Counted from the first letter of the stretch, positions 16,339 through 60,372 are shown. The stretch is 64,000 nt of DNA from Candidatus Aminicenantes bacterium (GCA_030669305.1 DAOVDU010000001.1:14812-78811); one strand, 5' to 3'. A program made the numbers and translations. The notes: a model not told the origin generated them from the letters alone.

Positions 16339-16600
16339 TTTAAGGTTAAAAGTTTAAGGTTTAAGGTATTTATATTTTTAATTTAGTATTATTCCTTAAA
16401 CATTCAACCTTAAACCAATTCCTGCTCTTGCCTTAAACATTAAACATTCAACCTTAAACCAATTCCTGCTCTTGCCTTAAACATTAAACATTCAACCTTA
16501 AACCAGTTTCTGCTCTTGCCTTAAACATTAAACATTTAACCTTAAACCAGTATATGTTTCGAATTTCGGATTTGGTGCTTGGTATTTGGTGCTTTTTACT
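16339..16600. mobile_element. MITE-like intergenic element, copy 1 (TTAAAC-rich family), with an internal 44-bp tandem repeat of about 3.3 copies
   Basis: Left end CCAAATACCAAAC and right end GGATTTGGTGCTTGGTATTTGGTGCTTTTT are inverted (AGCACCAAAT core). The inverted core GGAATAATACTAAA..AAAAATATAAATACCTTAAAC is shared with copies at 29970, 31619 and 42405. Unit CCTTAAACATTAAACATTCAACCTTAAACCAATTCCTGCTCTTG repeats from about 16396 to 16550. Confidence 0.55.
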
Positions 16601-16602
16601 TT

Positions 16603-17175
16603 CTATGCTATAGCAGCCTTTATCAGCTCTTCTATCTTAGCTGCGGATAGCTGCCCAAGTCGGCGACAAACTTTTGAACTCGTCCCCTTCTTTCTGATCT
16701 CAGAGCAGTGCAAAGGCGCTTGAGATATCCACCACTTCCAGTATTGTTTAACCAATCGGCTGCTATACTCTTTTGCTTCTTTTCGCTCTTTCTTCAACAT
16801 GCTAGCCGAGAAACCAATCCCCATGATTCCAGCAGTGAGGAATCCGCAGAGATCTTTATGGTATAATCCTCCCCCGAAGCCTGCGGCTGCCCAAACCAAA
16901 TCCTCTGATTTCCCAAGAAATCTCAGTGATACCATCAGGAGAGATTCTGCACAGCTGTAACCTTTGCCAAAATAGTTCATCAAATCCTCAGCCATTATTG
17001 ACTTCTCAATCAGTTTAAGTTCTTCAGGAGTCAATTCTTCCCTGAGCTCTTGGGGTACTTGGCTTAAATTTGCAGAAAACGGAAACATGGCAGATAATCG
17101 GCTCCCCACTAACAGGCTTGATGCAGATGCAATAAAGACTCTTCTGGATAGTTTTAAACTCTCAGCTTTTTTCAT
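16603..17175 (-). CDS. C_GCAxxG_C_C family protein with Tat signal peptide
   Basis: SRRVFIASASSLLVGS twin-arginine signal. YSCAESLL and HCSEIRKKG cysteine motifs. I chose the internal start MKKAESL, preceded by AAGGAGG at 5-nt spacing, over the first ATG at 17202. Confidence 0.6.
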   Translation of the reverse strand: MKKAESLKLSRRVFIASASSLLVGSRLSAMFPFSANLSQVPQELREELTPEELKLIEKSIMAEDLMNYFGKGYSCAESLLMVSLRFLGKSEDLVWAAAGFGGGLYHKDLCGFLTAGIMGIGFSASMLKKERKEAKEYSSRLVKQYWKWWISQAPLHCSEIRKKGTSSKVCRRLGQLSAAKIEELIKAAIA

Positions 17176-17205
17176 GATTCCTCCTTTACAAAGAGCATCC
17201 ATAAT

Positions 17206-18174
17206 CTATGAACGAAGCTTAAATAAGGGCTCCAGGTTCGAAGCAAGAAGGCGCAGACGGCGTTCTTCTCTGTCGTTAAGAGGCGTAAAACTGTGAGCAA
17301 TATCTAAGGCTCTTCTAAAGAGCCGCACATCCCCTGGAGGAATGGCAGATGTTATAGGCTGGGAAAGAGCAAAACAAAGGGCAAGATTAGTTTCTTCAGG
17401 GTTTAAAATAGGCTGATACCAATTCTTCGGCCAGTATTTTTGTAATTCTTCATTCGGCCATGGCTGCCTGGCCATAGCCTTGATAGCAAGAATTCCCATC
17501 TTTTTTTCTTTTGCTTTTTTGATTACCTCTGGTCCAAAATCCGCCTTGAAATAGCACACATAATTGACAGGAAAAAGAATTGTATCAAAATCAAACCTTT
17601 CCATGGCTCTCAAGGCCGCCTCAGAAGAATGGGCAGAAAACCCAATATATTTTACCTTTCCTCCATCCTTAGCCTTGAGAATAGCCCTCATTGCTCCATC
17701 CCATCTCAAGGCCCGATTCACATCTGCAATTTCCGTTAAAGCATGAAGCTGGTAGAGATCAAAATAGTCGGTTTGAAGTTTTTCCAGGGATTGATTAAGC
17801 TCCTCTTCAGCTCCTCTTCTATCTCTTTTTTCTGTTTTACAGGCGAGAAACACCTTCTCCCTGAAAGGTTTAAGGGCCGAGCCAAGAAGCTCCTCAGCAT
17901 TATCGTAGGTAGGAGCAACGTCAAAATAATTAATACCGTGTTCCACAGCTTCCCGTACAATCTCATTCACTCTTTCCTGCCCCTCATTCATAAGTACTAC
18001 TCCACCCAAGCCTAATATTGAAATTTTTTCCCCAGTTCGGCCTAAGATTCGCTTTGGCAGAGGCTTATATCCGATTTCTCCAAATTTATCTTTAGCCAAT
18101 CCGTCTAAACTTTTTAAGCCGGAGATCCCAGATAATCCAATTAAGCTCATCTGAAGAAAATTTCTTCGTTTCAT
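17206..18174 (-). CDS. aldo/keto reductase, Tat-exported
   Basis: KRRNFLQMSLIGLSG Tat signal. AKR core (GINYFDVAPTYDNAEELLG, YIGFSAHS). Start chosen at the Met preceded by AAGAGG rather than the first ATG at 18240. Confidence 0.7.
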   Translation of the reverse strand: MKRRNFLQMSLIGLSGISGLKSLDGLAKDKFGEIGYKPLPKRILGRTGEKISILGLGGVVLMNEGQERVNEIVREAVEHGINYFDVAPTYDNAEELLGSALKPFREKVFLACKTEKRDRRGAEEELNQSLEKLQTDYFDLYQLHALTEIADVNRALRWDGAMRAILKAKDGGKVKYIGFSAHSSEAALRAMERFDFDTILFPVNYVCYFKADFGPEVIKKAKEKKMGILAIKAMARQPWPNEELQKYWPKNWYQPILNPEETNLALCFALSQPITSAIPPGDVRLFRRALDIAHSFTPLNDREERRLRLLASNLEPLFKLRS

Positions 18175-18236
18175 GCATTTTCCTCTTACATTATTTTTCC
18201 AAATTCTACCAAATCCTAAAGAAAAAGGAAAATCTA

Positions 18237-19757
18237 TCAAAAATACTTATCCATCATTCGGTACTGGATAGCTTCGGAAATATGAACAGGGCTGATATTC
18301 TCTTCTCCATTTAAATCTGCAATCGTCCTGGCGACTTTTAAAACTCGAGTATAAGCTCTGGCACTGAACCCCAGCTTGTCGACAGCCATTTCTAAAAGTT
18401 CTTTTCCTTCGTCATCAACCTGACAGTACTTTTTAACCTCTTTTGTTCCCATTTGGGCATTACTGTATATTTTTCTCCCCTTGAACCTTTGAAGCTGCCT
18501 TTCCCGGGCATTGATAACTCTCTTTCTTATCTCAATTGAGCTCTCCCCTTCAAATTTGGAAATAATGTCCTTGAATTCTACCCTAGGCACGTCAACTTGA
18601 ATATCAATACGGTCGAGCAAAGGACCGGATACCTTCGAGTAATAACGGCCTCTCTGGGCGTCGGTACATTCAAAATCCGCTGAAGAAAGCCCGTAATAGG
18701 CATCTTCGCAGGGATTCATGGCAGCAACAAGCATAATGGAGGTAGGAAAAGTCACGGCCATAGAAGCGCGAGAAATAGTAACTTTTCTATCTTCCAAAGG
18801 CTGCCTTAAATCCTCAAGAACATGTTTTCGGAATTCAGGAAGTTCATCCAGAAACAATACTCCATTGTTAGCCAAGGAAACTTCTCCGGGTTTTGGAATA
18901 GTTCCTCCTCCTATTAAACCGGCATATGAAATTGTGTGATGAGGAGCTCGAAACGGTCTCTCACTGATAGCTCCTTTATCCTTTAATAATCCCGAAACGC
19001 TGTATATTTGGGTCGCTTCAATGATTTCCTCAAAAGTCATAGGCGGCAATATCGTAGGTAATCTTCTGGCCAGCATGGTTTTTCCTGCTCCAGGGGGACC
19101 GATTAAAAGGACATTATGGAAGCCTGCCGCTGCAACTTCCAGGGCTCGTTTGACATGCTGCTGCCCCTTAATTTCCTGAAAATCCAAATCACAGTCAGGC
19201 TGAGGCAGAAGTTCCTGTAAAGTACATATGCTAGGAGCTACAGATTCAGGGCAGTTAAGCAATTGTATAACCTGCACTAAATTTTCCAAGGCATAGATAT
19301 CCATATCCTGCACCAGTGCTGCTTCTTTTAAATTCTCCTTAGGAACAACAATTCCCTGAAAGCCCTTTTTTTTAGCAAGAACAGTGGAGGAAAGGATACC
19401 TTTTCCTGGCTTTAATTTCCCGTCCAAAGCCAATTCACCTAAAAATAAAAACTCGCGGAGTCTTTCTTCAGGAAACAAGTCTAAATGAGCTAGGAAACCT
19501 AGAGAGATAGGAAGATCAAAAGCTGAGCCTTCCTTTTTCCTATCTGCAGGAGCTAAATTGATGATGATTTTCCGTGAAGGAAATTTATATCCACAATTCT
19601 TCAGCGCCGCTCTCACTCTTTCTCTGCTTTCCCGCACTGAAGCATCAGGAAGTCCTACAATGACAAAACCAGGGAATCCAAAAGATATATCAACTTCAAC
19701 ATCAACAATATAGGCCTCGATTCCTATCAAAGAGGCACTGGCGATTTTAAAAAGCAT
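18237..19757 (-). CDS. comM: YifB/ComM family Mg-chelatase-like AAA+ ATPase
   Basis: N-terminal Lon-like domain (GIEAYIVDVEVDIS). Walker A GPPGAGKTM. C-terminal ComM helix-turn-helix region. Full-length homology to YifB. Confidence 0.85.
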   Translation of the reverse strand: MLFKIASASLIGIEAYIVDVEVDISFGFPGFVIVGLPDASVRESRERVRAALKNCGYKFPSRKIIINLAPADRKKEGSAFDLPISLGFLAHLDLFPEERLREFLFLGELALDGKLKPGKGILSSTVLAKKKGFQGIVVPKENLKEAALVQDMDIYALENLVQVIQLLNCPESVAPSICTLQELLPQPDCDLDFQEIKGQQHVKRALEVAAAGFHNVLLIGPPGAGKTMLARRLPTILPPMTFEEIIEATQIYSVSGLLKDKGAISERPFRAPHHTISYAGLIGGGTIPKPGEVSLANNGVLFLDELPEFRKHVLEDLRQPLEDRKVTISRASMAVTFPTSIMLVAAMNPCEDAYYGLSSADFECTDAQRGRYYSKVSGPLLDRIDIQVDVPRVEFKDIISKFEGESSIEIRKRVINARERQLQRFKGRKIYSNAQMGTKEVKKYCQVDDEGKELLEMAVDKLGFSARAYTRVLKVARTIADLNGEENISPVHISEAIQYRMMDKYF

Positions 19758-19851
19758 CTTCTTTCAGATATAAAGACGAATAGATTCATGCAGTTATATC
19801 AAAGAATATGAAGAAAAAGGGGGGAAATGGGAAAAGGGGATAAAAAGGAGC

Positions 19852-20655: not shown

Positions 20656-20805
20656 CTGCCTCTAAATTCTCACATCACCTGAGACAATTCTTAACATAAT
20701 CCTTGAACAGAGTCAAATCTTTTCCTTTTTCCTTACTTTTGCTTTCTCTCATCTCCCATTTATGTGGAAGAATACAATTGAGTCCGTTTAGTCCATTTCA
20801 ATAAT

Positions 20806-21984: not shown

Positions 21985-22060
21985 ACTATCTCCAAATCTA
22001 AAGAATTCAAGAGTCAGAATCCAGAATCCTAAAAAATTTTTTAATTCTGTATTCTGAATT

Positions 22061-26243: not shown

Positions 26244-26306
26244 TTTTCAGTTATTTATTTTAAAAAAAACAACAAAATAAAAGCAAACCACCATTCAATC
26301 TTTAAA

Positions 26307-26420
26307 GTTAATCTGTTAGTCGGTTAGTCTGTTAGTCGGTTATTTTAATTAAAATATTCAACTGACTAACTGATCAACAGTCTAACTGTCTAACTGACAA
26401 ACTGTCTAACTGACTAACAG
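26307..26420. repeat. octamer-array hairpin element (CNGTTARW arrays in inverted orientation around palindromic AT core TATTTTAATTAAAATA)
   Basis: CTGTTAGTCGGTTAGTCTGTTAGTCGGTTA, then the AT core, then ACTGACTAACTGATCAACAGTCTAACTGTCTAACTGAC... read directly. Confidence 0.8.
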
Positions 26421-28436: not shown

Positions 28437-28613
28437 TTTAATCTGTTAGTCTGTTAATCTGTTAGTCTGTTAATCGGTTAGACTGTTAATCTGTTAGTCA
28501 GTTAGTCTGTTAGTCAGTTAGTCTGTTAATCAGTTAATATTTTATTTATCTTAAATGGGATGTTAGGAGTTAACAGACTAAACGGGCCTGACGGACTCAA
28601 CAGACATAACTGA
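28437..28613. repeat. octamer array (about 12 direct CTGTTAGT/CTGTTAAT units) plus a degenerate inverted partial array
   Basis: Read directly. It sits immediately upstream of the sulfatase-like gene start. Confidence 0.8.
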
Positions 28614-29225: not shown

Positions 29226-29966
29226 ATGGTCCCCATTATGCAAAATTATAAGATAAAAATCAGCTACGACGGCACGGATTACCATGGCTGGCAGCGTCAG
29301 CCTGATAGAAAAACAATTCAAGGCCTGCTTGAAAATGCACTTTTCAAACTCTGCTCAAAGAAAATCAATGTTATCGGAGCAGGAAGAACAGACTCAGGAG
29401 TGCATGCACATGGACAGGTAGCCCATTTCAAAGCCGCTCTAAACCTCAGCGACGAAGAGTTCTTCCAGGCCTTGAACGGGCAACTCCCCAAAGATATAAG
29501 GATAATCTCGCTCAAAAGTGTAGACACAAATTTTCACGCCCGCAAAATGGCCAAATCAAAAATATACCAATACAGAATATATAACTCACCTGACATCAGT
29601 CCATTTCTTTTCAGGTATGTTCTTCAATGGTCATCGCCGCTTGATGTGGAATCGATGGAAGAAGCAGCTAAACATTTCGTTAGAGATGCAGACTTTACTC
29701 CATTCTCTTCCAATCGCTTTCTACATCCGATAAGGAAAGTATTTCGCTCGGAGATCATAAGAAAAGGCAAGGAAATTATCTACACGGTCGAAGCGAACGG
29801 ATTTTTAAGATATATGGTTCGGACCATGGTGGGAACTCTCCTTGAAATCGGCAGAGGAAGGATTCCACCTGACAGTATACGCGAACTCTTCAAACAAGGA
29901 AAACGTTCTCTCGAAAGCCCCACGGCTCCAGCACGTGGACTGTGCCTTATGAAAGTCAAATATTAG
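29226..29966 (+). CDS. truA: tRNA pseudouridine(38-40) synthase TruA
   Basis: IKISYDGTDYHGWQRQP and GAGRTDSGVHAHGQV, with the catalytic Asp in RTDSGVHA. Confidence 0.85.
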   Translation: MVPIMQNYKIKISYDGTDYHGWQRQPDRKTIQGLLENALFKLCSKKINVIGAGRTDSGVHAHGQVAHFKAALNLSDEEFFQALNGQLPKDIRIISLKSVDTNFHARKMAKSKIYQYRIYNSPDISPFLFRYVLQWSSPLDVESMEEAAKHFVRDADFTPFSSNRFLHPIRKVFRSEIIRKGKEIIYTVEANGFLRYMVRTMVGTLLEIGRGRIPPDSIRELFKQGKRSLESPTAPARGLCLMKVKY

Positions 29967-29969
29967 AAT

Positions 29970-30075
29970 GCCAAAACCTATATTGGTTTAAGGTTGAATG
30001 TTTAATGTTAAAGGAATAATAATAAATGAAAAATATAAATACCTTAAACCTTAAACTTTAAACCTTAAACTAATC
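29970..30075. mobile_element. MITE-like element, copy 2 (truncated, lacks the right TIR)
   Basis: GGTTTAAGGTTGAATGTTTAATGTTAAAGGAATAATAATAAATGAAAAATATAAATACCTTAAACCTTAAACTTTAAACCTTAAACTAATC matches the cores at 31685 and 42430. Confidence 0.5.
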
Positions 30076-30158
30076 CGTTGAGTCCGTTAAATAAAAAGGC
30101 GAGACGAACAAAAGGCATGTCATTGCGAGCTTTCGAAGAAAGCGTGGCAATCCCATAA

Positions 30159-30276
30159 GTTCAGTTGGTCAGTTAGTCGGTTAATCAGTTGGTCAGTTAA
30201 ATATTTTAATTAAAATAACAGACTAACCGATTAACAGACTATCCGATTAACAGACTAACAGACTAACCGAAATCAG
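30159..30276. repeat. octamer-array hairpin element with TATTTTAATTAAAATA core, followed by a T-rich tract
   Basis: Inverted arrays flank the AT core. TTTTGAGTTTTGAGTTTTTT follows, so it probably acts as a terminator between the convergent truA and rimI genes. Confidence 0.75.
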
Positions 30277-30312
30277 TTTTGAGTTTTGAGTTTTTTCTCC
30301 TCACTCCTTACT

Positions 30313-30798
30313 TTAAGCGAAGCTCTTTCCCATAAGCATGGCATCTTCCCTGGGATCACTGTAGTAGTTCCTTCTTATCCCCAAAACCTTGAACCCTAAC
30401 TTGTTGTATAAAGAGAGCGCAGCATAATTGGACGGCCTAACTTCCAGCAACACAAACTCTGCTCCTTCTCTCTTGATCTGAACGATAACCTGCCGAATAA
30501 CAGCTTCAGCAATTCCCATCATTCTAAAATCAGGGCTGACAGCAATATTGCTGATTTGGATCTCTTTTTCTACATGCCAATAAATAATGTACCCAATGAC
30601 CTTGTTTAGAGGCCTATAAACAATCACATAAGCGTTCGATATCGGGTAATTATCTATTTCTCCCTTAAAGGAAGAAACATGCCAAGGTTTGGAATAAGAA
30701 AGATTCTCAATTTTTAAAACATCAGGAAGGTCATCCTCCTCCATTCTTCTCAAATAAAAAAAATCCTGGGGGAGTTTAGCTTTCTTAATGACGTTCAT
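30313..30798 (-). CDS. rimI: ribosomal-protein-alanine N-acetyltransferase RimI (GNAT)
   Basis: GNAT motif A region (RMMGIAEAVIRQ). Conserved pairing with tsaB and a 14-nt overlap with it. Confidence 0.75.
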   Translation of the reverse strand: MNVIKKAKLPQDFFYLRRMEEDDLPDVLKIENLSYSKPWHVSSFKGEIDNYPISNAYVIVYRPLNKVIGYIIYWHVEKEIQISNIAVSPDFRMMGIAEAVIRQVIVQIKREGAEFVLLEVRPSNYAALSLYNKLGFKVLGIRRNYYSDPREDAMLMGKSFA

Positions 30799-31465
30799 CC
30801 GCCTGAGACTTCCGAAAGTATAGTGGTTCGACTTTGCAAAAATCCATTCCTTTATTCTCCTTTAATATTTCATAGCCAAGCAGCCCAACCTCGTTGGCTA
30901 TAAAGAGCGAACGTGATGGAAATCTGACCTTATCTTTAAAATACTGAAAAATTTTGTTCTTGTAAACATAAACTCCGGTGCCGATAAAGAAAATTATCCT
31001 GTGGGAAGGAAGAAGTGAGAAGAAGCGATCAGGAGAATAAGCGCCCTGACGAACAATTTCCTTAAGCTCGCTTCCCCTTGAATCGAAAAGAGCAGCATAG
31101 ATCTCGCCTTTTTTGGCATCCAATAAAGGACAGAGAAGGCGGCTCTGCGGGTGCTGTAGCTTTAACGCAAGTGCTTTTAAGGTTGAAACTGGCGCGATTG
31201 GCTTTCCGGAAGCATACGCAAAAGACTTAACCGTACTCAGCCCGATCCTGATTCCTGTAAAAGATCCCGGGCCTACAGCCAATGCAAAACCATCGATGTT
31301 TCTAATCTTCAAACCTCTGTTTTTTAGCAGAAATTGGACAGCCGGAAGAAGCCTTTCGGAATATGTCGTGGAAGAATCTATATTTACCTCGGATAGAAGC
31401 TTAGTATTCTTTAAAATCGCTATTGATCCAGCAGAAGTAGTTGTGTCCACTGAAAGAATTAACAT
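30785..31465 (-). CDS. tsaB: tRNA t6A37 threonylcarbamoyladenosine biosynthesis protein TsaB
   Basis: MLILSVDTTTSAGSIAIL N-terminus and an inactive Kae1/YgjD-like fold. Gene pair with rimI. Confidence 0.8.
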   Translation of the reverse strand: MLILSVDTTTSAGSIAILKNTKLLSEVNIDSSTTYSERLLPAVQFLLKNRGLKIRNIDGFALAVGPGSFTGIRIGLSTVKSFAYASGKPIAPVSTLKALALKLQHPQSRLLCPLLDAKKGEIYAALFDSRGSELKEIVRQGAYSPDRFFSLLPSHRIIFFIGTGVYVYKNKIFQYFKDKVRFPSRSLFIANEVGLLGYEILKENKGMDFCKVEPLYFRKSQADERH

Positions 31466-31618
31466 AGCAGTCCTATCTCCAGTTTAGCGTTTTACTGTAG
31501 TAGAAAAATCCATCGGTTCTTTGTATTTAATATATCATTTAAACCATCGCTCATGGGCTCAATAAATTCTTATTTAATATTATTCAAAGAGTAAAATATT
31601 TTGTCAATGCATATAAAA

Positions 31619-31822
31619 TTCCAAATTACAATTTCCAAATACCAAACAAGCACCAAAATCCCAATGCCCGAAACCTTTTTGGTTTAAGGTTAAATGTTTA
31701 AGGCAAGAGTGGAAATTGGATTAAGGTTGAATGTTTAATGTTTAAGGATTAATACTAAAAGAAAAATATAAATACCTTAAACTTTAAACTTTAAACTAAT
31801 CATTTGGAATTTGGTGCTTTTT
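31619..31822. mobile_element. MITE-like element, copy 3 (most complete, about 205 bp, imperfect ~20-bp TIRs)
   Basis: Left ...AAGCACCAAAATCCCAATG. Right CATTTGGAATTTGGTGCTTTTT, which is the reverse complement ...AGCACCAAATTCCAAATG. Internal core as in the other copies. Confidence 0.55.
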
Positions 31823-32026
31823 ATTTTTAAAGCAAATCTTTAATAGTCGCTGCAACTATTCCGCAAAACCTTCTAGGCGCTCCGAAAATAGGATAATCGC
31901 TATGAAAATAAAATAGCAGGTAGGCTTATTAAATATATATATGCTGGCTGTTGGGGGAAATAAGCAAAAGGGGGTTATGAAGTGTTTACAGCCAGCATAA
32001 ACAATTGTTTTAAATATACATATAAT

Positions 32027-32062
32027 AAAGAAAAAAGTCAATCACCTTTAAAGGTGATTTTT
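32027..32062. terminator. bidirectional intrinsic-terminator-like hairpin (TCACCTTTAAAGGTGA flanked by T/A runs)
   Basis: Perfect 16-bp palindrome with TTTTT on the + side and AAAAAAG on the other. Lies about 110 bp past the last gene of the minus-strand ECF operon. Confidence 0.5.
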
Positions 32063-32166
32063 AAGGGATGATATTTATTAGGAGAAAACCAGAAATACAA
32101 AGAAAAAAGGGAAATGGAAGGATTTTTCCATTTTTCTCAAATGTCTTTCCGGTTGGCGTTAAATTT

Positions 32167-32553
32167 CTATTCCAGCCAAACCTTCACTACTTCGTCGTCT
32201 TCGTAGACTTCAACCAGCACCATCGGACCGAGTTTTTTAAGCTCCGCAAAAATCTCCTTGAGGTCAATATCATAGTCATCACAATCGATTCTCAGATTCT
32301 TATCAGGGCTACATTTGATAAAAATATCAACTAATGAAATTGGAAGTGTAATCCGGACTTTATCTTTTTTCGTGCGGGTATCTGTAACAAGGACCTTGAA
32401 CCACTTCACTTCTGTCCCAGCCTTATACTCGGGATTATTCTTGACAGCCTTCTTGATCGCCTGAATGTTATCCTTGCGCTCGGCCAAGAGAAAGCTCATC
32501 AGAAAAAGGGTCAAAGTGAACACGACTAACACAATAATTGCAGCTTTTTTCAT
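32167..32553 (-). CDS. small secreted protein (128 aa) sharing a C-terminal module with the upstream TPR/HEAT protein
   Basis: Signal/TM MKKAAIIVLVVFTLTLFLMSFLLA. Its C-terminus DLKEIFAELKKLGPMVLVEVYEDDEVVKVWLE parallels DLDKIVKELMEFRGKIIEIKTEKSIIKIWID of the ORF at 32566. Confidence 0.5.
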   Translation of the reverse strand: MKKAAIIVLVVFTLTLFLMSFLLAERKDNIQAIKKAVKNNPEYKAGTEVKWFKVLVTDTRTKKDKVRITLPISLVDIFIKCSPDKNLRIDCDDYDIDLKEIFAELKKLGPMVLVEVYEDDEVVKVWLE

Positions 32554-34806: not shown

Positions 34807-34960
34807 TATTTTTAAATATTAAAAAAAAAATTGGCTTTTTCATTCAAGCCAAATCAGTATTTTGTTCTCCTCATCTTTTCCATTCTTCACCTCATTTGAG
34901 TATCTTCAAAGTGTATTACGGATATACTTTTAAAAAGGTTCATGCTTAGTAAAAGTTTTT

Positions 34961-35201
34961 CTGTTAGTCAGTTAATCCGTTAGTCTGTTTATCTGTTAAT
35001 AAGTTTAATTCATATAATTGATAAAAAAGAAATTATATTAAAATGACGATATCAATAATTACCTATTATCCCCACAAATGGAAGAAGAACCAAATAAGAT
35101 AACTGATTAACTGACTAACCGACTAACAGTCTAACTGATTAACTGACTAACAGTCTAACCGTCTAACCGATTAACCGACTAACAGTCTAACCGATTAACT
35201 G
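34961..35201. repeat. octamer-array element: left array 34961-35000, right inverted array 35101-35201, separated by about 100 bp of AT-rich sequence
   Basis: Read directly. The right array holds about 12 units of TAACTGAC/TAACCGAC type. Confidence 0.8.
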
Positions 35202-35205
35202 AAGC

Positions 35206-37470: not shown

Positions 37471-37553
37471 TTGATTAACAGATTAACTGACTAACTGATT
37501 AACTGACTAACTGACTAACTGACTAACTGACTAACAGATTAACAGATTAACAG
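37471..37553. repeat. octamer array (about 10 units TAACTGAC/TAACAGAT) in the divergent spacer between the ABC operon and sppA
   Basis: Read directly. Confidence 0.8.
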
Positions 37554-39368: not shown

Positions 39369-39500
39369 ATCTGTTTATCTGTTAATCGGTTAGTCTGTTT
39401 TGTCTGTTCTGAAATAAATAACTGACTAAATTGTCTAAGCTAATTCCTTGTCTTGCCTGTCTTGCCAGCGAAGCGTTGTCTTGCCTGTCTTGCCCTTTCT
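39369..39500. repeat. degenerate octamer hairpin (39369-39440) plus a third repeat family (TTGTCTTGCCTGTCTTGCC x2 around AGCGAAGCG, 39447-39500)
   Basis: Read directly. Related sequence recurs at 47941-48035. Confidence 0.6.
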
Positions 39501-42404: not shown

Positions 42405-42532
42405 CGAAACAAATCCAAATGACCGAAACTTATATTAGTTTAATGTTAAAGGTTTAATGTTTAAAGAATAATACTAAATGAAAAATATAAATACTTTAAA
42501 CTTTAAACCTTAAACTGATCCATTTGGAATTT
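42405..42532. mobile_element. MITE-like element, copy 4
   Basis: ACAAATCCAAATGACCGAAAC...GTTTAATGTTAAAGGTTTAATGTTTAAAGAATAATACTAAATGAAAAATATAAATACTTTAAACTTTAAACCTTAAACTGATCCATTTGGAATTTTC. Confidence 0.5.
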
Positions 42533-42606
42533 TCTTAACATCTTGTGGAACTGAGATTTAATTATTGCTGTTAATTTAAATTTAACGACACAATCAGTAT
42601 ATAGCT

Positions 42607-47586: not shown

Positions 47587-47631
47587 TTTCCTTATTCTCG
47601 CCCAAAAGAGAACTTAAATCAATCCCCTTCA

Positions 47632-47930
47632 TCGGTTAATCGGTTAATCTGTTAGTCTGTTAGTCAGTTGATCTGTTAAATATTCTAATTAGGCTCATCT
47701 CCAAAAGATTTGGTAGGATCATAAGGGGTCAAGGGGTCAGGGGTTCGAGTGACGTGCTGAAAAGTTACAAAGAGCAGAACGTTTGGCAAAAGTCCTATGA
47801 TTTTTGAAAGGTTCGAACCCTTTGCATCAACTAATCAGGAGAAAAATCTTTAATTAAAATAACTGACTAACTGATTAACTGACTAACAGACTAACAGACT
47901 AACAGATTAACTGATTAACTGATTAACTGA
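47632..47930. repeat. octamer-array hairpin element split by a ~180-bp insert (left array 47632-47680, right inverted array 47861-47930)
   Basis: Left array ends ...AAATATTCTAATTA. The right array begins after ...TTAATTAAAATA. So the palindromic AT core is interrupted by 47681-47860. Confidence 0.6.
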
Positions 47931-48280
47931 ATTGATGAGATTGTCACGCTTCGCTCGCAACAGAGGATTGCCACTCTTTCTTCGAAAGCTTGCAATGACA
48001 CCCCTTTTGCCTATCTTGCCTGTCTTGCTGTCTACTCTTTAGGGGTGAATAGAATATTGTGAAACTTCCCCCCTAAAATCCTCCTCCCCGGTGATTGACA
48101 ACCAAATTGGGATAGATATATAAAAGAAAAGAAGATAATAGAAAGATGGTAAAATATTTTTCTTTCTTGAGGAGGTCAATTACCATAATATTGGAGCAAA
48201 AAAAAATTTTTTAGTTTGACAAAACATTTTTTATTTGATATTTAATTACCAACCCAGGTGAATAAACTAATAACATATAC

Positions 48281-53906: not shown

Positions 53907-53918
53907 GAGGATGAAAAA

Positions 53919-54521
53919 ATGAGAAAAAGGAAAAGTGTAAAAATTATGGCAATCATTCCGGTAATTCTCTTCCTTATCTCCTGTAACCCTATAGTAAACG
54001 ATTCTACATCAGACAGTAGGCTTATTATCACAAGCATGACCGGCTTTGATATGGAAGAGAATGAAGTGAATTTTATTCAATCAGACGTTCTTTATGAGAA
54101 TCCTGATACTGGAGAGACATCTATCAGCAGTGACCCAGGCAAGGCTACTTTTTCAGCAGAGCTTTTGAATCCAGCACCCATATTTGACCCATCGCACTAT
54201 AACAGCATAACCGTGACCAAGTATACTGTGTCTTTTTCTCGATCTGATGGAAAAAACACCGAAGGAGTAGATGTTCCCTATTCTTTTTCAGGCTCTCTTT
54301 CAGCTTTAGTAGAAATTGGTTCCACGACTGAAGTTGTATTTGTCGTAGTGAGAGAAGTAGCGAAGATGGAGCCTCCTTTGTTTAGTCTGAGAGAATGCCG
54401 AGGAGATGGGGTCATTCAGGCAACAGCCAAAATTGAATTTTACGGACATGATATAACTAACCATAATGTCAAATCCACAGGCTATCTGACTGTTTTCTTT
54501 GCCAACTATGTCAATGAATGA
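53919..54521 (+). CDS. lipoprotein of unknown function (lipobox LISC)
   Basis: Signal peptide plus lipobox. No recognised domain. Translationally adjacent to pilQ. Confidence 0.45.
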   Translation: MRKRKSVKIMAIIPVILFLISCNPIVNDSTSDSRLIITSMTGFDMEENEVNFIQSDVLYENPDTGETSISSDPGKATFSAELLNPAPIFDPSHYNSITVTKYTVSFSRSDGKNTEGVDVPYSFSGSLSALVEIGSTTEVVFVVVREVAKMEPPLFSLRECRGDGVIQATAKIEFYGHDITNHNVKSTGYLTVFFANYVNE

Positions 54522-55361
54522 GTGAGGATTGGAAAAATGAAAAATAAAAGAAATATTATCATAGTCTTTTCCCTGGCTTTAATTCTATCGTTCCTCCCTT
54601 CATGCAGAAACGCAGTAGAAGAACCTGCGCCTTTCGGACCTTCCAGCCTTTCGATTCTTCTTCATACCTCCGCCAATCCCAATGTGTTATTTGCCGGCTC
54701 TACACCCGAAGTAACAACCATAACGGCCAGTTTGAAGAAATTTGACGGAACCCCTTTATCCAACATAAGCATCCATTTTGAAGTCACACCTAACCTTGGC
54801 CATTTCGAAGGCAACCTATCGGTCAAAACAAAAACAACAGACTCAAGCGGCCTTGCCTCACTAAGTTACTACGGCCCTACTGCTCAAGATTTAACTGCTA
54901 ACCAAACTCTCTACATTTATGCTTATGCCGGCTGGGAAGGCAAGGAAATTATCGCGGAATTGACTCCTGTTTATATTGTTCGAGATAAATACGATCTCGA
55001 TCTTGTCTTCGAACTGATGGCCGATCCGAATGTGTTATGGTGCACTTCAGAAAGACCTGAATCTGTAATATTAGGAATTTTCACATTTGAGGACGGAATC
55101 CCTGTTGTAGGAAGAAAGGTCTTCTTTACAATTCTATCAGGACCAGGTGAATTTTCTGACGGCAAAACAAAAACCTATGTTGTGACTGATGAAGAAGGAG
55201 TAGCCACTATAACCTACATCGGACCCACAAATGACGAAATAGACTACGACCAGTTTGTCACAATCCGAGGGCAGCCAGAAACGTATTGGGCTGACCCTGA
55301 CAATAACAAATACTACTTGCACAAAGAAATGGAAATCCGCCTCATAAAAGGAACTGATTAA
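54522..55361 (+). CDS. lipoprotein with two tandem bacterial Ig-like (Big_1-like) repeats
   Basis: Lipobox LPSC. Internal repeat NVLFAGSTPEVTTITASL...DSSGLASLSYYGPT and NVLWCTSERPESVILGIF...DEEGVATITYIGPT. Confidence 0.5.
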   Translation: MRIGKMKNKRNIIIVFSLALILSFLPSCRNAVEEPAPFGPSSLSILLHTSANPNVLFAGSTPEVTTITASLKKFDGTPLSNISIHFEVTPNLGHFEGNLSVKTKTTDSSGLASLSYYGPTAQDLTANQTLYIYAYAGWEGKEIIAELTPVYIVRDKYDLDLVFELMADPNVLWCTSERPESVILGIFTFEDGIPVVGRKVFFTILSGPGEFSDGKTKTYVVTDEEGVATITYIGPTNDEIDYDQFVTIRGQPETYWADPDNNKYYLHKEMEIRLIKGTD

Positions 55362-55494
55362 CAGACAAACTGACTAACTGTCTAACTGACTAACTGATTA
55401 AACTGACTAACTAATTAACTGACTAACTGATTAAACTGACTAACTGATTAACAGACTAACCGTCTAACTGATTAACAGACAAACTGACTAACAG
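55354..55494. repeat. octamer array (about 17 units, single orientation) between the convergent pil-lipoprotein operon and priA
   Basis: Read directly. Confidence 0.8.
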
Positions 55495-55496
55495 AA

Positions 55497-57647
55497 TTAT
55501 TCATAAATAACAATCGATTTTCTTCCCTTGATTTGCTTGAGGGATTTTTTCAGGACCTCATCGAGGCTCCTCTTCCTCCTGGATTTCATTATAACCTGAA
55601 TCCTGTATTTTCCTCTAACCCTTGTCACCGATGCCAAAGCAGGACCCAATATCTCAACATTATCAGCCTGGCTCTTCACCTGTAAAGAAAATGCTCTGGA
55701 TTCCTTAGCTAAAGTTCTTAAATTATTTCCCAGGAACAGCACTTCAGCCATATGCGAAAATGGGGGATAGTTCATGATGCGGCGGTATTTAATTTCTTTA
55801 TTAAAAAAGCAGATGTATTCCCCAAAGGCAGCCTGCTGAATACTGAAGTGGTGAGGAAGAGCCGTCTGGACAAGGAATTCAGACTCTTCATCATCCCGGA
55901 CAAATTTCCTCATCTGGTGCAGGCTTTGAAAAGTTTTTTGGCTTGCTCTAAAATCAGAGAGAGTAAGAATTGTTTCTGGACAAAGAACAACAACCAAAGA
56001 TACAGGAGTTAAACCAGCTTGATGAACTAATAGCCGGGTCCCAAGAAGAAGATCAATTTTCCCTTTCTTAAAATGCAAAAGGATTCTTTCCCTCTCTTTT
56101 TTGCTCTTTATAACATCTGTATCAAAACACACAATCTTGCTTTGAGGAAATTTCTTTTTCAATTCCTCCTCAACGGCTTCGATACCGAAGCCTTTTTTTC
56201 TGATAATCCTGCTCCCACACTCAGGGCATTCATTCTTCTTAGGCAGAGAATAATTACAATAATGACAAACTAATCTTTCTTCTCTTTTATGATAGGTCAA
56301 GGCAATATCGCAATGAATGCAGCGAGGGATGTAGCTGCATCTCGAGCAGATGAGAAAAGGGGCATATCCGCGCCTGTTAATAAAAACTAGAATAGGCTGT
56401 TTCTTTTTTAATCTTTCTCCAATTTTTTTCTCAAGTATTTCGGAGATCACACCTCTTTCCCGCTTATCATCAACGATTTTGACTTTCCTTCCTTTTATCC
56501 CCTCGTCTAAACTCAACAAATAGCCATTCTTTTTAGCTTTGTAAAAAGCCTCAACAGAGGGAACAGCAGAACCATAGACCAAAACTGAAGCTTCTTGTTT
56601 TGCTCTTATCCACGCTCCTTTTCTGGCATCATAGGAAGGGCTCTCCCGTTGATAATAAGAGTCATCCTGTTCTTCATCCACAATAACCAACCCCAAATTC
56701 TCAAGCGGTGAAAAGAGACAAGAACGGGGCCCTACAACCACATCTACTTTCCCATCTTTTATCTTTTGCCATTCAAGTTCCTTCTTTCTTTCTGATAATT
56801 GGCTGTGGAGAAGAACGGCGTTCCCTCCCAATTTCTTCTCAAACTTTTCTAAAAGAGTTTTGGTCAAGGAAATTTCAGGGACAAGAAATAATACCCTCCT
56901 CCGCAGAGATAAAGCTTTTCTAATCAAACTGAAGTAAACCGCCTCTCTCTTCTCTTGGGAACCATAAAGAAAATAGGGCGAAAAAATCTTCTTGCCTGCC
57001 TTTCCAGCGATAAGGTGAACAGCCTGGAAAGATTTCTCATCCAAGGAAAAATCTATTTCAAGCTGAGTTGGCCCAGCAGGAACCGCCATCTCCTTTTTTC
57101 GATTTGCCTTTTTAACTTCTCTCTTGATCTGTATCAACCCTTTATTCTCCAGTCGAGAAAGCATATAAGACAAATTTTTTTCTTTGAATCTTCTTCTCAG
57201 GAAAATGTCACTGTATGGCCTTTTTTGCAGGAATTCCAAAATACTTCTCTCCCCTTGTGACATAGCTCCATTCTGGATGGCAACTTTCCCTTTCTCAGAG
57301 AGAGATATCCTCGCTTTGCTCTTAAGAACAAAAGAAGAGGGAAGCGAGGCCTGGAGAAGCTCCCCCCAGGCTGAATAATAAAACCTGCTAAGATTTCGGG
57401 TGAAAGCGAGAAAACTCGAGGAAAAAACTGGCTCTTTTTCCAGCACTTCCAAAATCTCCTTGAGTTTAAAGTCCTGAGCTAACCTCCTTTTTTTTAGACC
57501 AATAATAAAGCCAGTAAGTTTCCTTTGACGGAAGGGAACAAGTACTCTCGACCCGATTTTTGCTTCTTCAGAATATGCTTCTGGGATTATATAAAAAAAA
57601 GATAAATCAATAGGAAGAGAAAGGATGATTTCAGCATATAAGGTCAT
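55497..57647 (-). CDS. priA: primosomal protein N' (PriA helicase)
   Basis: 3'-DNA-binding N-terminus. Helicase core. Cys-rich zinc-binding region CSRCSYIPRCIHCD...CHYCNY...CPECGS. Confidence 0.9.
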   Translation of the reverse strand: MTLYAEIILSLPIDLSFFYIIPEAYSEEAKIGSRVLVPFRQRKLTGFIIGLKKRRLAQDFKLKEILEVLEKEPVFSSSFLAFTRNLSRFYYSAWGELLQASLPSSFVLKSKARISLSEKGKVAIQNGAMSQGERSILEFLQKRPYSDIFLRRRFKEKNLSYMLSRLENKGLIQIKREVKKANRKKEMAVPAGPTQLEIDFSLDEKSFQAVHLIAGKAGKKIFSPYFLYGSQEKREAVYFSLIRKALSLRRRVLFLVPEISLTKTLLEKFEKKLGGNAVLLHSQLSERKKELEWQKIKDGKVDVVVGPRSCLFSPLENLGLVIVDEEQDDSYYQRESPSYDARKGAWIRAKQEASVLVYGSAVPSVEAFYKAKKNGYLLSLDEGIKGRKVKIVDDKRERGVISEILEKKIGERLKKKQPILVFINRRGYAPFLICSRCSYIPRCIHCDIALTYHKREERLVCHYCNYSLPKKNECPECGSRIIRKKGFGIEAVEEELKKKFPQSKIVCFDTDVIKSKKERERILLHFKKGKIDLLLGTRLLVHQAGLTPVSLVVVLCPETILTLSDFRASQKTFQSLHQMRKFVRDDEESEFLVQTALPHHFSIQQAAFGEYICFFNKEIKYRRIMNYPPFSHMAEVLFLGNNLRTLAKESRAFSLQVKSQADNVEILGPALASVTRVRGKYRIQVIMKSRRKRSLDEVLKKSLKQIKGRKSIVIYE

Positions 57648-58291
57648 TTTTTGCCCAGGAAGGCCATCACTTTTTTCATGTCCTCCCAGACCATTCTTCG
57701 AATTTTCTTGTTGCCCTCATTTCTAATAAGATAAGAAGGATGAAAGGTCGGCATCACATTAATCTGATCAAATTTATAAAAGTCCCCCCGTAAAGCAGTC
57801 ATTCCCAGCTTGTTTGGAATAAAAAAATCAGCAGCCACTTTCCCCAAGGTAACAATGACTCTGGGGTTAATCATCTTGATTTGCTCAAAGAGATATCCTT
57901 TACACTTTTCAATTTCCTCCCTATTAGGAGTTCGGTTATTAGGCGGCCTGCACTTGATAATATTAGTGATATAAACTTCTTCTCTTTGAAAGTGCATGGC
58001 ATTTATTATTTTTGTAAGAAGCTGCCCTGCTTTCCCTATAAAAGGTCTCCCTTGTATATCTTCATCATGGCCAGGGGCTTCCCCGACAAATAGAAGTTCT
58101 GTTTTCTGATTCCCCTCTCCCGGCACAGCATTCTTTCTGCTCTGCGCCAGGGGGCACTTTTCACAGTGAAGGATACGTTCTTGAAGAGAAACAAAATGAG
58201 ACTTTTTTATTATGAACTCAGCCCCAATCAGTGAAAAAAATTTTAATTCCTCCTCAAGATCAAAAAGGAGTTTTTCAGCCGCTTTTCCCAA
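57644..58291 (-). CDS. udg: uracil-DNA glycosylase, family 4 (Fe-S)
   Basis: GEAPGHDEDIQGRPFIGKAGQLL motif and the HCEKCPLAQ Cys cluster. Confidence 0.85.
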   Translation of the reverse strand: MGKAAEKLLFDLEEELKFFSLIGAEFIIKKSHFVSLQERILHCEKCPLAQSRKNAVPGEGNQKTELLFVGEAPGHDEDIQGRPFIGKAGQLLTKIINAMHFQREEVYITNIIKCRPPNNRTPNREEIEKCKGYLFEQIKMINPRVIVTLGKVAADFFIPNKLGMTALRGDFYKFDQINVMPTFHPSYLIRNEGNKKIRRMVWEDMKKVMAFLGKK

Positions 58292-59483
58292 TTATCTCCT
58301 CCACTTCATCTAGTATTATCTTGCTTATCTCAAGTTTGCTTTTCTTCCCCGTTTTAATCATCCTTCCATCAGGGTGAATTATGCTTACCTGATTAAAATC
58401 TGATTCAAATCCCACGCCTTCTACAGATACATCATTGGCTACGATTAGATCAAGATTCTTCTCTTTTAATTTTTTGAGAGCATTGTGTATAACATTTTCT
58501 GTCTCGGCTGCAAACCCGACCAGGATCTTTTTGCCTTTTTTGTGGCTGATTTTATCCAAAACATCTTGAGTCCGAATAAGATCTACTTTTCCCGACGACT
58601 CTCGCTTTTTAATTTTCTGGAATGATACCTCGGCAAACTTGAAATCAGAGACAGCAGCAGCCATAATGACAATATCAGCCTTCTCAAAGTGTTTCAAAAT
58701 CTCCTCTTCCATTTCCTGGGCAGTCTGAATCTCTCTGAACTTGGTTTCTCTTGGTGGCTGAATATTAGTAGGGCCAGAAATTAGGATGACATCCGCCTCA
58801 CGTCTCTGAGCCTCCTCTGCAAGCTCATAGCCCATCTTGCCTGAAGATCGGTTAGTTAGAAAGCGGACAGAATCCATGAATTCCCGGGTCGGACCCGCTG
58901 ATACAAGAATTGTTTTTCCCCTTAAGCTATGGCTCTTATCTATCAACTTCAGCCCTTCTTCAACAATTTTCTCAGGGGCAGCAAGTCTTCCCCATCCTTC
59001 TTCTCGACAAGCCAAATAGCCCTTTTCTGGCTCAATAAACTTCACTCCTAGGGACTTAAGTTTTTTGATATTCTGCTGGGTTTGTCTGTGAAAATACATG
59101 GATTCATTCATGGCAGGAGCTATGATTACTGGACATTTGACAGCCATATAAAAAGTCGATAAAAAATCATCCGCTATGCCAGAGGCAAATTTTCCGATCA
59201 TATTGGCTGTGGCTGGAGCAACAAGAAAGAGAGATATTTCTTTGGCTAGAGCTACATGAGAAATCTCTTCAGAAAATTCATCACTAAAAGGATCTATGAA
59301 AATCTTATGACCAGAAAGAGCACTAAAAAGCAGAGGAGAAACCAATTGGGCAGCATTTTTTGTCATAATAACCTGAATTTGAAACTTTTTCTTCTGGAAG
59401 TTACGGATAATTTCACAAGATTTGTAAATACTGATTGATGAGCATATCCCCAAAGCGATTTTTTCCATTTCAGCCTCTTTCAT
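58275..59483 (-). CDS. coaBC: bifunctional phosphopantothenoylcysteine decarboxylase / phosphopantothenate-cysteine ligase
   Basis: N-terminal flavoprotein domain and C-terminal CoaB domain. 402 aa. Confidence 0.9.
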   Translation of the reverse strand: MKEAEMEKIALGICSSISIYKSCEIIRNFQKKKFQIQVIMTKNAAQLVSPLLFSALSGHKIFIDPFSDEFSEEISHVALAKEISLFLVAPATANMIGKFASGIADDFLSTFYMAVKCPVIIAPAMNESMYFHRQTQQNIKKLKSLGVKFIEPEKGYLACREEGWGRLAAPEKIVEEGLKLIDKSHSLRGKTILVSAGPTREFMDSVRFLTNRSSGKMGYELAEEAQRREADVILISGPTNIQPPRETKFREIQTAQEMEEEILKHFEKADIVIMAAAVSDFKFAEVSFQKIKKRESSGKVDLIRTQDVLDKISHKKGKKILVGFAAETENVIHNALKKLKEKNLDLIVANDVSVEGVGFESDFNQVSIIHPDGRMIKTGKKSKLEISKIILDEVEEIIGKSG

Positions 59484-60085
59484 ACTTCTTCAGAAAAACT
59501 TCGAAGGATAAGCATAATTTCCTTCTTGCAAGGATCGAAGCGGCATCTCGTGCTCAAAATGATTGATTTCAGCTCCTCCACAGCTTTTTCAAGCAGGTCA
59601 TTGATAATAATATAATCAAAATGATGATAATGCCTGATTTCTTTTTTTGCCACATCAAGCCTTTCATTAATCGATTCAGGGCTCTCTTCGCCTCTTTTTT
59701 CCAGTCTTTTTTTCAGCTCCAAATATAATGGAGGCATGATAAAGATGAAGATAGTTTTTTTTAGCTTCTCTTTTATTTGATGCGCGCCCTGGACATCAAT
59801 ATCCAAAAGAATATCTCCTTTTGTTGCCTTCTTCTCTAGCTCTCTTTTGGAAGTACCATAATAGTTACCATGAACAACAGCCCACTCAACCAGCTTCATA
59901 TCTTCAATCATCCTCTTAAATTCGCCTTCTGATACAAAATAATAATCCTTTCCCTCTTCCTCGGAATTTCTCTTTTTTCGGGTTGTATAAGAGACAGAAA
60001 AATCGATATTATCCAGTTCTTCCAGAACCCGACCAGCAAGCGTAGACTTCCCGCATCCTGATGGACCAGTGATAATAAAAAGCAT
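59480..60085 (-). CDS. gmk: guanylate kinase
   Basis: P-loop ITGPSGCGKSTL and a YYFVS-like NMP-binding region. Confidence 0.9.
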   Translation of the reverse strand: MLFIITGPSGCGKSTLAGRVLEELDNIDFSVSYTTRKKRNSEEEGKDYYFVSEGEFKRMIEDMKLVEWAVVHGNYYGTSKRELEKKATKGDILLDIDVQGAHQIKEKLKKTIFIFIMPPLYLELKKRLEKRGEESPESINERLDVAKKEIRHYHHFDYIIINDLLEKAVEELKSIILSTRCRFDPCKKEIMLILRSFSEEV

Positions 60086-60171
60086 CTTTTTTCCTAGTTT
60101 CCTATATTATCATAATATCAATTTTTCCAATTTATGTTAATAAGAGGATAATATAATAGAAGGGTAGAAAG

Positions 60172-60372
60172 TTCAAATTCCAAATAACAAATAAGCACCA
60201 AAATTCCAATTACAGGCGGTTGGTAAATACTGCTAAACTGCCATACTGCAGAAGAATAAGAAAATGGTAAATGGTTAATAGTTTTCTTGCCTTAAACCTT
60301 AAACTTTAAACCTTAAACTAGTTTGTTTGGAATTTGTTTGGAATTTGGATTCTGGAATTTGGGATTTTGAAT
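60172..60372. mobile_element. MITE-like element, copy 5 (variant internal sequence, reiterated right TIR)
   Basis: Left CAAATAACAAATAAGCACCAAAATTCCAATTAC. Internal CCTTAAACCTTAAACTTTAAACCTTAAACTA. Right TTTGGAATTTGTTTGGAATTTGGATTCTGGAATTTGGGATTTTG. Confidence 0.45.

Follow-up and report, generated by a model that had tools for sequence, protein, structure and literature searches.

Composite intergenic hairpin repeats with exchangeable cores in a lineage of Candidatus Aminicenantes

Short TTAAACC-rich repeats with self-complementary arms stand at several gene ends in a 64,000-nucleotide (nt) stretch of DNA from a Candidatus Aminicenantes bacterium (GCA_030669305.1, DAOVDU010000001.1:14812-78811), which we refer to as the window and whose strain we call A. 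What kind of element are they, and do they move? The original prediction had described them as a MITE-like family (MITEs being transposable elements of the miniature inverted-repeat type) with five copies. In this study, we analyzed the architecture of these repeats, their alleles in sister strains and their distribution beyond the window. Our favored explanation, to which we give a probability of about 0.6, is that the sites belong to a lineage-specific mosaic repeat family of BOX-, BIME- or foldback-like character, in other words composite intergenic hairpins that are mobile as cassettes and individually dispensable.

First, we found that four sites of the window (16312-16602, 29967-30088, 31619-31828 and 42405-42534) share a core of about 105-125 nt, in which a 27-nt AT-rich loop (consensus GGAATAATACTAAATGAAAAATATAAATACC) is flanked by a left arm of degenerate GGTTTAA heptamers and a right arm of degenerate TTAAACC heptamers, the two arms being mutual reverse complements. 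In several copies the core is surrounded by an additional outer pair of arms, made of CCAAAT- and ATTTGG-type heptamers; one of these arms finishes at ..CCAATGACCGAAAC and its partner at TTTGGAAT... An exact 28-mer, AAAAATATAAATACYTTAAACYTTAAAC, occurs four times in the window (16352-16379 on the minus strand, and from 30029, 31762 and 42481 on the plus strand), compared with 0.00 occurrences expected from 100 dinucleotide shuffles. The core profile, built by nhmmer from ten copies, recovered exactly those four sites in the window (E values from 2e-28 to 4e-32), together with a partial match at a fifth site that covered 60290-60337 only (E = 2.6e-10). Copy 1 is inverted with respect to copies 2-4. 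Every copy was predicted to fold into a long hairpin (values of -47, -27.8 and -53 kcal/mol, with z scores of -3.35, -5.6 and -3.3), and none of 200 shuffles folded as stably as the element copies. The five copies are 120-290 nt long, have a GC content of 22-31% and hold 2-10 stop codons in each of the six frames. A check of covariation showed nearly invariant pairs, with a single double change from GC to AU. The predicted family is thus borne out as a repeat that is dispersed, non-coding and hairpin-forming, has inverted-repeat arms, occurs in both orientations and is truncated to varying degrees. The proposed count of five copies needs qualification, since four have the full core, whereas the fifth (60172-60371) has only outer arms and one inner arm. 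Similarly, the termini first proposed for the family (AGCACCAAAAT.CCAATG.CCGAAAC and CATTTGGAATTTGGTGCTTTTT) are complete in copy 3 only, and the outer arms are shorter or different elsewhere.

The individual copies differ considerably in completeness. Copy 1 (16312-16602; core on the minus strand), which was recognized by the 28-mer, Tandem Repeats Finder (TRF), folding and the profile, begins with an outer arm (16312-16338) that is at the same time the last eight codons (QKSKYQTD) and the TAG of an amidohydrolase gene. An inner arm of the GGTTTAA type (16339-16366), the loop (16367-16393), the second inner arm, which has grown to 3.5 x 44 nt (16394-16548), and a junction with the second outer arm (16549-16602) follow, and the terminus GGTGCTTTTT lies 3 nt short of the stop codon of a convergent C_GCAxxG gene. 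The 44-bp tandem that had been noticed inside this copy was recovered by TRF (16396-16549, period 44, 3.5 copies, 97% matches), and its unit equals one left arm plus a 14-nt linker. Copy 2 (29967-30088, plus strand; 28-mer and profile) comes directly after the TAG of truA and consists of a junction (29967-29984), left arm (29985-30014), loop (30015-30041), right arm (30042-30070) and tail (30071-30088), the CCAAAT outer arms being absent. Copy 3 (31619-31828, plus strand; 28-mer, fold and profile) is the most complete, with an outer left arm (31619-31674, terminus CCCAATGCCCGAAAC), a two-unit left inner arm (31681-31747), the loop (31748-31774), a right arm (31775-31796) and an outer right arm with a T-run (31797-31828). 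Copy 4 (42405-42534, plus strand; 28-mer, fold and profile) is situated between the ftsB stop codon and the ribosome-binding site (RBS) of an addA-like gene, and comprises an outer left arm (42405-42429, ..CCAAATGACCGAAAC), left arm (42437-42466), loop (42467-42493), right arm (42494-42515) and outer right arm (42516-42534). Site 5 (60172-60371, plus strand) abuts the stop codon of yicC; its outer arms occupy 60172-60216 and 60319-60371, and its right arm, of the TTAAACC type (60290-60318), is identical to the one in copy 2, whereas its interior (60217-60289), composed of ATTTACC/ATTAACC and TTTAGCAG units, differs from the core, the loop and left inner arm being missing. Period-7 arrays were called by TRF at 30041-30070 and 60290-60318.

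Second, we compared these sites with sister-strain contigs that were obtained via members of the protein clusters and whose flanks are 95-98% identical in nucleotide sequence: strain B (ERZ27249619 k141_233644, Ga0209979_1000092), strain C (ERZ27251159 k141_1478446, Ga0114920) and strain D (Ga0247425). Identical alleles recurred in three to four independent assemblies each. At site 4, the TTAAACC-type core is present in strain A and in loci L075 and L105; in strains B and C (seven independent assemblies) another hairpin, with GGAGTAA/CTCCTTA arms and the loop AACAGGAATAAAAATATTTTG, stands between the same outer sequences. L105 and L102 are 99.81% identical over 3157 nt at this site, yet they have different hairpin cores, and outside the cassette (L105 1866-1967) they are distinguished by six single-nucleotide polymorphisms, the nearest more than 730 nt away. 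Because the flanks are near-identical while the cores differ, the core has recently been replaced between unchanged flanks in at least one event, and the family is or recently was mobile as a cassette. The interior of site 5 measures 134 nt in A, is a mosaic of about 613 nt in B and is a 151-nt GGAGTAA-type hairpin in C, with unchanged outer arms. The window lacks the GGAGTAA-type loop, and B and C have no intact TTAAACC-type core in the corresponding regions. Among near-identical strains, then, the core is exchanged as a cassette between conserved outer arms.

At the other three sites the alleles differ mostly in length. The intergenic region of site 1 is 264 nt long in A compared with 112 nt in B, which is without a 67-nt tip (the loop, one arm and a portion of the second arm) and without two 44-nt units, and which after the loss of the tip has kept a perfect 13-bp outer stem and the T-run. 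L085 has half a 44-nt unit at this site, and the C_GCAxxG gene is also gone. The number of 44-nt units was accordingly 3.5 in the window, 1.5 in strain B, 0.5 in L085 and 2 in copy 3 and L072. At site 2, the region between truA and rimI is 346 nt in A, 76 nt in B and 20 nt in C and D. In strain B the junction, left arm and loop are joined directly to the rimI stop codon (AAATAC|TTTAAGCG), and in C and D only AATCCAAAACCTATATTGG|TTTAAGCG is left, the 19-nt remnant being the junction module of the element itself. Since B and C/D still hold remnants of the element, it was ancestral at this site, and the shorter alleles are independent deletions at TTTAAG microhomology that halted at the rimI stop codon. 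At site 3, a 356-nt segment (31575-31930), which contains copy 3 with 44 and 108 nt of flanking DNA and is bounded by a 6-bp direct repeat (CTTATT), is present in A and absent from B, C and D. We favor a deletion for this indel, although the direction of the event is unpolarized. Across approximately 40 kb, the structural differences of more than 20 nt were almost all located in repeat-bearing intergenic regions, with the exception of three gene-content indels, and most of the differences between strains are deletions, slippage and cassette replacements, not clean insertions.

A separate dispersed hairpin family was also observed, whose arms mimic Shine-Dalgarno and anti-Shine-Dalgarno sequences (AAGGAGT / CTCCTTA, CTCCTCA). 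It was seen in L091-L094, L102-L104 (site 4), L106-L107 (site 5) and L074 (around 1879), stands in B and C directly upstream of the start codon of the addA-like gene, and is represented in the window only by a half arm at 30296-30312.

The strain alleles bear directly on the MITE assignment, according to which the copies would be deletion derivatives of a DDE-type insertion sequence, bounded by terminal inverted repeats (TIRs), moved by a transposase encoded elsewhere and flanked by a duplicated target. Part of this label stands. The elements are small, AT-rich, non-coding, multi-copy, base-paired, present in both orientations and, in some sense, recently mobile; several copies share a conserved left outer segment of about 65 nt, and L069 has a terminal pair, TCCAAATGACA / TGTCATTTGGA, with ATA on both flanks. 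However, when 10-12 copies were aligned in search of constant termini, the ends proved ragged and copy-specific, with similarity fading gradually and with outer arms lacking in copy 2, L073 and L074; TIR-delimited boundaries, which the original prediction had assumed, disappeared in this alignment. Inspection of all copies by eye gave no consistent target-site duplication either, the candidates being only ATA at L069 and CTTATT at site 3. The former is trivially likely in AT-rich DNA, and the segment bounded by the latter includes 152 nt (the two flanks of copy 3) that are unique in 1.3 Mb of sequence and are not the cargo expected of a MITE; this indel would fit a microhomology deletion at least as well as a target duplication. 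The conserved boundary is internal (..CCAATGACCGAAAC, followed by differing interiors), and the interior is replaced while the supposed termini stay, which is the opposite of what cut-and-paste movement predicts. As for empty sites, site 1 is empty in the distant relatives L009 and L011, and among the strains we found partial deletions (sites 1 and 2), an unpolarized indel (site 3) and replacements (sites 4 and 5). As had been predicted, the domain search revealed no transposase or integrase domain in any open reading frame (ORF) of the window. On this evidence the family does not appear to fit the definition of a MITE given in PMC3049150, and we consider such an origin unlikely. Two other assignments were tried and rejected: an integron attC-like reading, suggested by the resemblance of the units to GTTRRRY, did not fit the core-site consensus and lacked an integrase, and IS200/IS605-type elements have two separate subterminal hairpins, not one foldback.

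Third, we examined the distribution of the core beyond the window. The exact core gave no match in the GTDB representative genomes, which implies that the species is not represented there, and none in viral contigs, and a blastn search with copy 3 and its flanks against plasmids and phages found nothing. The core was found in six JGI metagenome contig stretches of the same species, with 87-92% identity to the window over 80-146 nt. These stretches are other loci, because their similarity to the window is confined to the element, and the family is hence not restricted to the window. Altogether, the core is present at at least 10 loci of one Aminicenantes species. In contrast, the profile had no match across 960 kb from other Aminicenantes and from related Acidobacteriota (65 loci), where arrays of period 7 or 8 are essentially absent, with the exception of L053. 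Logan short-read contigs of the window's strain stop 31-40 nt past the amidohydrolase stop codon or within other elements, as expected at a repeat. We found no paper on repeats in Aminicenantes.

This distribution is informative about a purely local origin, in which polymerase slippage would have enlarged the stem of a short terminator on the spot at every site, without any copying from one locus to another. Bacterial intergenic DNA is generally over-rich in heptameric repeats, which has been attributed to polymerase slippage (PMC4692102), and changes in unit number between strains were indeed observed. On the other hand, the 27-nt loop, which is not repetitive, and the junctions show 85-92% identity among at least 10 unrelated loci, and the GGAGTAA-type hairpin likewise shows loop and junction similarity at at least two loci. 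The probability of a purely local origin appears to be close to negligible; local slippage would survive only as a process that resizes the arms and is otherwise contradicted by the shared loops.

The JGI loci are also rich in other heptamer arrays, commonly as inverted pairs (AAATTCC, CTCCTCA/GAGGAGT, AAACTCA, ACGCAAA, ATTAACC, ATTTACC and others), and many period-7 arrays were called by TRF in L069-L074; L069 and L071, which represent the same locus in two samples, differ by two heptamers. L053, a distant Acidobacteriota metagenome-assembled genome (MAG) whose amidohydrolase is 50% identical, has inverted arrays of its own (AGAACTC / TTCTTGAG and CTCAGAA / CTGAGTT at 4927-5040, 10762-10795 and 13166-13302), one pair of which (AGAACTC/GAGTTCT) is placed right after the orthologous stop codon. 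Because these arrays are built of different units, the hairpin-array architecture seems to recur independently.

The clearest effect of an element on a gene was observed at site 1. The HutI-like amidohydrolase gene (15043-16338, plus strand; Pfam Amidohydro_1, E = 6e-23), whose homologues are named imidazolonepropionase in the sources, has a conserved part that finishes at ..NGKVL, and the profile match of copy 1 extends to 16310. The last codons and the stop (QKSKYQTD + TAG, 16312-16338) read AAATCCAAATACCAAACGGATTAG, which is the outer arm plus junction found at other copies. The tails of relatives are unrelated and 0-9 residues long. In the distant relatives L009 and L011, which lack the element here, the convergent C_GCAxxG gene follows almost immediately, with about 3 bp between the two stop codons in L011 by our reading. 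The tail is common to all eight of the fetched cluster members, with single-residue variants (QKSKYQAD and QQSKYQTD) and one 430-residue sequence that ends at ..KYQT. The suspicion that an insertion had remodelled the 3' end of hutI was therefore well founded. Because the tail corresponds to the outer arm, is unrelated to the tails of relatives and is shared by the cluster members, the element was gained in this lineage, displaced the native C-terminal tail and stop codon of the HutI-like gene, and was then fixed. The C-terminus of the C_GCAxxG protein is not remodelled.

The position of the elements at gene ends raises the question of whether the hairpins have been kept by selection, either as two-way terminators or insulators or as mRNA-stabilizing 3' structures, with dispersal being secondary. 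According to our ORF calls, most of 12 sites are located no more than about 75 nt downstream of a stop codon, several abutting or overlapping it, and all four convergent intergenic regions of the window carry an array. RNA of either strand would have a CA-rich 5' arm and a GU-rich 3' arm, the latter being U-rich on either strand, and copies 1 and 3 end in GGTGCTTTTT, so that T-runs follow both. In addition, the strains keep the outer arms but differ in the interiors, and the stem and T-run retained at site 1 of strain B would still suit a terminator. A two-way terminator or insulator effect is thus plausible. However, the hairpin is gone from the truA/rimI region of C and D, site 3 is absent in B, C and D, and octamer arrays (described below) occur in all four divergent promoter regions, one of them without a hairpin. 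Ordinary short terminators are also present in the window, for example at 32040-32059 and 34831-34852, whereas the stems of the elements are AT-rich and 25-70 nt long, with large loops; copy 4 is directly upstream of the RBS in a likely operon. A scan for sigma-70 and terminator consensus sequences, which is blind to long AT-rich hairpins, did not call the element copies; copies 3 and 5 lie upstream of good promoter-like sites, not on them. Individual copies appear to be dispensable. The tight fit to stop codons would be explained equally well by tolerance, since every frame is closed by the units and the genes set a limit to deletions. Selection for such a function as the reason for the family seems improbable to us.

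The promoter-like sites were two sigma-70-like matches on the minus strand, both just downstream of an element copy: TTGACA-17-AATAAT (31579-31607, 11/12), upstream of tsaB and inside the 356-nt segment missing in B-D, and TTAACA-17-TATTAT with TG (60112-60140), upstream of gmk.

The TTAAACC-type elements do not stand alone. The genes of the window are housekeeping ones (the dcw cluster, the HutI-like amidohydrolase, truA, tsaB/rimI, ftsB, the addA-like helicase-nuclease, pilMNOQ, priA, gmk and yicC), and most of the longer intergenic regions between them contain arrays of 7- or 8-nt units. An octamer family, TAACNGAY / RTCNGTTA, is commoner than the TTAAACC type, with about ten sites (26300-26420, 28438-28545, 30153-30270, 34953-35007, 35098-35205, 37472-37551, 39370-39400, 47631-47680, 47860-47930 and 55352-55492), often as inverted pairs around a palindromic center, ATTTTAATTAAAAT. 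The octamer hairpin at 30150-30285 was predicted to fold with -37.3 kcal/mol (z = -5.9), and the array at 55352-55492 consists of 17 copies in one orientation that fill a convergent intergenic region; the single-orientation array without a hairpin mentioned above belongs to this family. Octamer unit numbers vary between strains. Hairpins made of heptamer or octamer arrays form a far larger population, of which the TTAAACC-type family is one recurring combination.

Such arrays could in principle be iterated binding sites for a DNA- or RNA-binding protein that controls the neighboring genes, a regulatory motif cluster. The units are strongly enriched in intergenic DNA, as 81 of 95 TAACHGA and 24 of 44 CCTTAAA occurrences are within the non-coding 7% of the window, and heptamer repeats of Nostoc have been connected with regulation. 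Nevertheless, the number and even the type of units change freely between near-identical strains at the same gene pair, the neighbors are unrelated housekeeping genes, the unit sequences are many and different, and arrays also stand between convergent genes. We regard this explanation as very unlikely.

Several smaller features were noted among these arrays. Small array types include GTCTTGCCT units, a hairpin with CAGAATC arms, and GAGTTTT and CTCCTCA units (39440-39498, 48010-48040, 22010-22060 and 30275-30312). A GTCATTGCGAGC...GCAATCC module is present in both orientations (30120-30155 and 47940-48000), with several further copies in the mosaic site-5 interior of strain B (L095/L096, around 3130-3330) and a 27-nt microhomology deletion in strain B's copy at 47.9 kb. 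An insert of about 165 nt with GGGGTCA heptamers is exactly centered in an octamer palindrome (47690-47850), and its first 70 nt or so recur at the loop position of a half TTAAACC-type element in L072 (3040-3140), which hints that hairpin centers may be preferred landing sites. A clean insertion at 47.7 kb was looked for by comparison with strain B, in which the insert proved to be present too (L113). A search for tRNA and tmRNA genes in the window found none, despite a suspected tRNA-like GGTTCGAA motif at 47.7 kb. No Rfam match reached the gathering threshold over the whole window, and at E <= 1 over 29900-32200 only sub-threshold miRNA-precursor models were returned on the octamer hairpin, as for a generic long hairpin. 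Strain B also differs by 2.8 kb of inserted DNA between its genes for the aldo/keto reductase and the ChlI-like protein (L081-L084, L086), which encodes an AAA_14/DUF4143 ATPase, a TPR protein and a HicB-like antitoxin and is absent from the window (18227-18331) and L085, and a 128-amino-acid ORF without a Pfam match (32167-32553) is missing from strain C (411-nt indel, window 32133-32545; L097/L098). The amidohydrolase locus assigns the organism to Candidatus Aminicenantes. Among 5.8 billion proteins, the nearest relatives form one cluster at 98% identity, with none above 77% after it, and the lineage is thus an isolated one.

How might a composite hairpin family of this kind spread and decay? 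We suggest that the core could be copied or exchanged where a hairpin is extruded, with the shared outer arms serving short-homology recombination or template switching; alternatively, a hairpin-specific enzyme might act in trans. Slippage of heptamers and 44-nt units then resizes the arms, and hairpin-tip loss and microhomology deletions that halt at neighboring stop codons erode the elements. Because TAA and TAG close every frame on both strands, an element would be able to abut or overlap gene ends, and any two-way terminator or insulator effect is probably incidental. Several points weigh against this explanation. These data give no direct view of copying and leave the changes at sites 3 and 4 unpolarized. 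The outer arms offer homology of only about 13-30 nt, which is short for RecA-dependent conversion. A putative terminator role sits uneasily with copy 4, which stops within a few nt of the addA RBS, a place at which strong termination would do harm. The near absence of covariation in the arm pairs says nothing either way. Finally, the strain comparisons rest on metagenome assemblies of mixed populations, with about 40 kb compared.

A related possibility, which we put forward tentatively, is a hairpin-targeted mobility system, in which the outer arms (..CCAATGACCGAAAC | cargo | TTTGGAAT..) would serve as docking frames at gene 3' ends for TTAAACC, GGAGTAA and larger mosaic hairpins alike, the agent of their insertion, excision and exchange being either a dedicated enzyme or a template switch in replication that is specific to hairpins. 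If true, such docking frames would account for strain-level turnover of cassettes with perfectly conserved flanks.

Comparison with known repeat families suggests that, for the mosaic repeat family favored here, a BOX-type composite repeat is the closest architectural match. BOX elements of Streptococcus pneumoniae and S. suis are composite boxA-boxB(n)-boxC repeats that are described as currently dormant, and they are small intergenic modular repeats whose two terminal modules pair into a stem-loop (PMC3049150). The Aminicenantes elements likewise have pairing terminal modules and a variable tandem internal module (44 nt in 0.5, 1.5, 2 or 3.5 copies, compared with about 45 nt in BOX). The two also share alternative terminal modules around one kind of internal module, a nesting of elements, the lack of a clear target-site duplication, an uncertain mobilizing enzyme and the ability to form or modify ORF ends. 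The analogy is architectural only, as the phylum is different and we claim no sequence relationship; moreover, the Aminicenantes arms are themselves arrays of 7-nt units, and near-identical strains have different interior hairpins swapped in while the outer arms stay constant. Tandem 7-nt units that are intergenic only, sometimes as inverted pairs between convergent genes, and that vary extensively in length and sequence among close relatives are known from the STRR repeats of heterocystous cyanobacteria and the GGGNATC-type heptamers of Xanthomonas and Nostoc (PMC4692102). The Aminicenantes arrays agree with these in being tandem, 7-nt, intergenic and variable in unit number between relatives, whereas their units are AT-rich and stop-codon-rich, not G-rich, and make up recurring hairpins in which the loops are conserved and non-repetitive and the inner arms are nested within outer ones.

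Other families are more distant. REP, BIME and REPIN sequences are lineage-specific, hairpin-forming mosaic palindromic clusters at gene 3' ends, thought to move as hairpins via a single-copy RAYT enzyme in trans (PMC3116915). Each REP unit, however, is one imperfect palindrome with a conserved head, 20-40 nt in length, and such units are paired in inverted orientation and associated with a RAYT gene, in contrast with heptamer arrays that form arms of 25-70 nt here; no Y1-transposase domain is encoded within the window. The Correia elements of Neisseria and the Nezha MITEs of cyanobacteria are similarly AT-rich, shorter than 300 nt, multi-copy, non-coding, intergenic and strongly structured with inverted-repeat arms, whereas the Aminicenantes family has no constant termini or reproducible target-site duplication, no matching insertion sequence was identified, and the family varies in its interior, not in the presence or absence of the whole element. 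The foldback (FB) transposons of eukaryotes, which are kilobase-sized and some of which have a transposase-coding middle, resemble it in general terms in their long inverted arms of short tandem repeats, variable middle and unstable structure, although nothing points to homology or to a shared enzyme.

Taken together, these repeats form a dense and fast-evolving layer of non-coding hairpin DNA in an uncultured phylum without genetics, where hairpin arrays fill most of the longer intergenic regions, break short-read assemblies and rewrite the 3' ends of genes. The natural alleles provide an unusually clean record of turnover, with a tip-deleted, half, resized or wholly different hairpin between the same flanks, and the sites offer specific testable cases for the origin and mobility of heptamer-based repeats of the STRR, BOX-like and BIME-like kinds. 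In practical terms, they make good strain markers and call for caution in MAG assembly and in the calling of gene ends.

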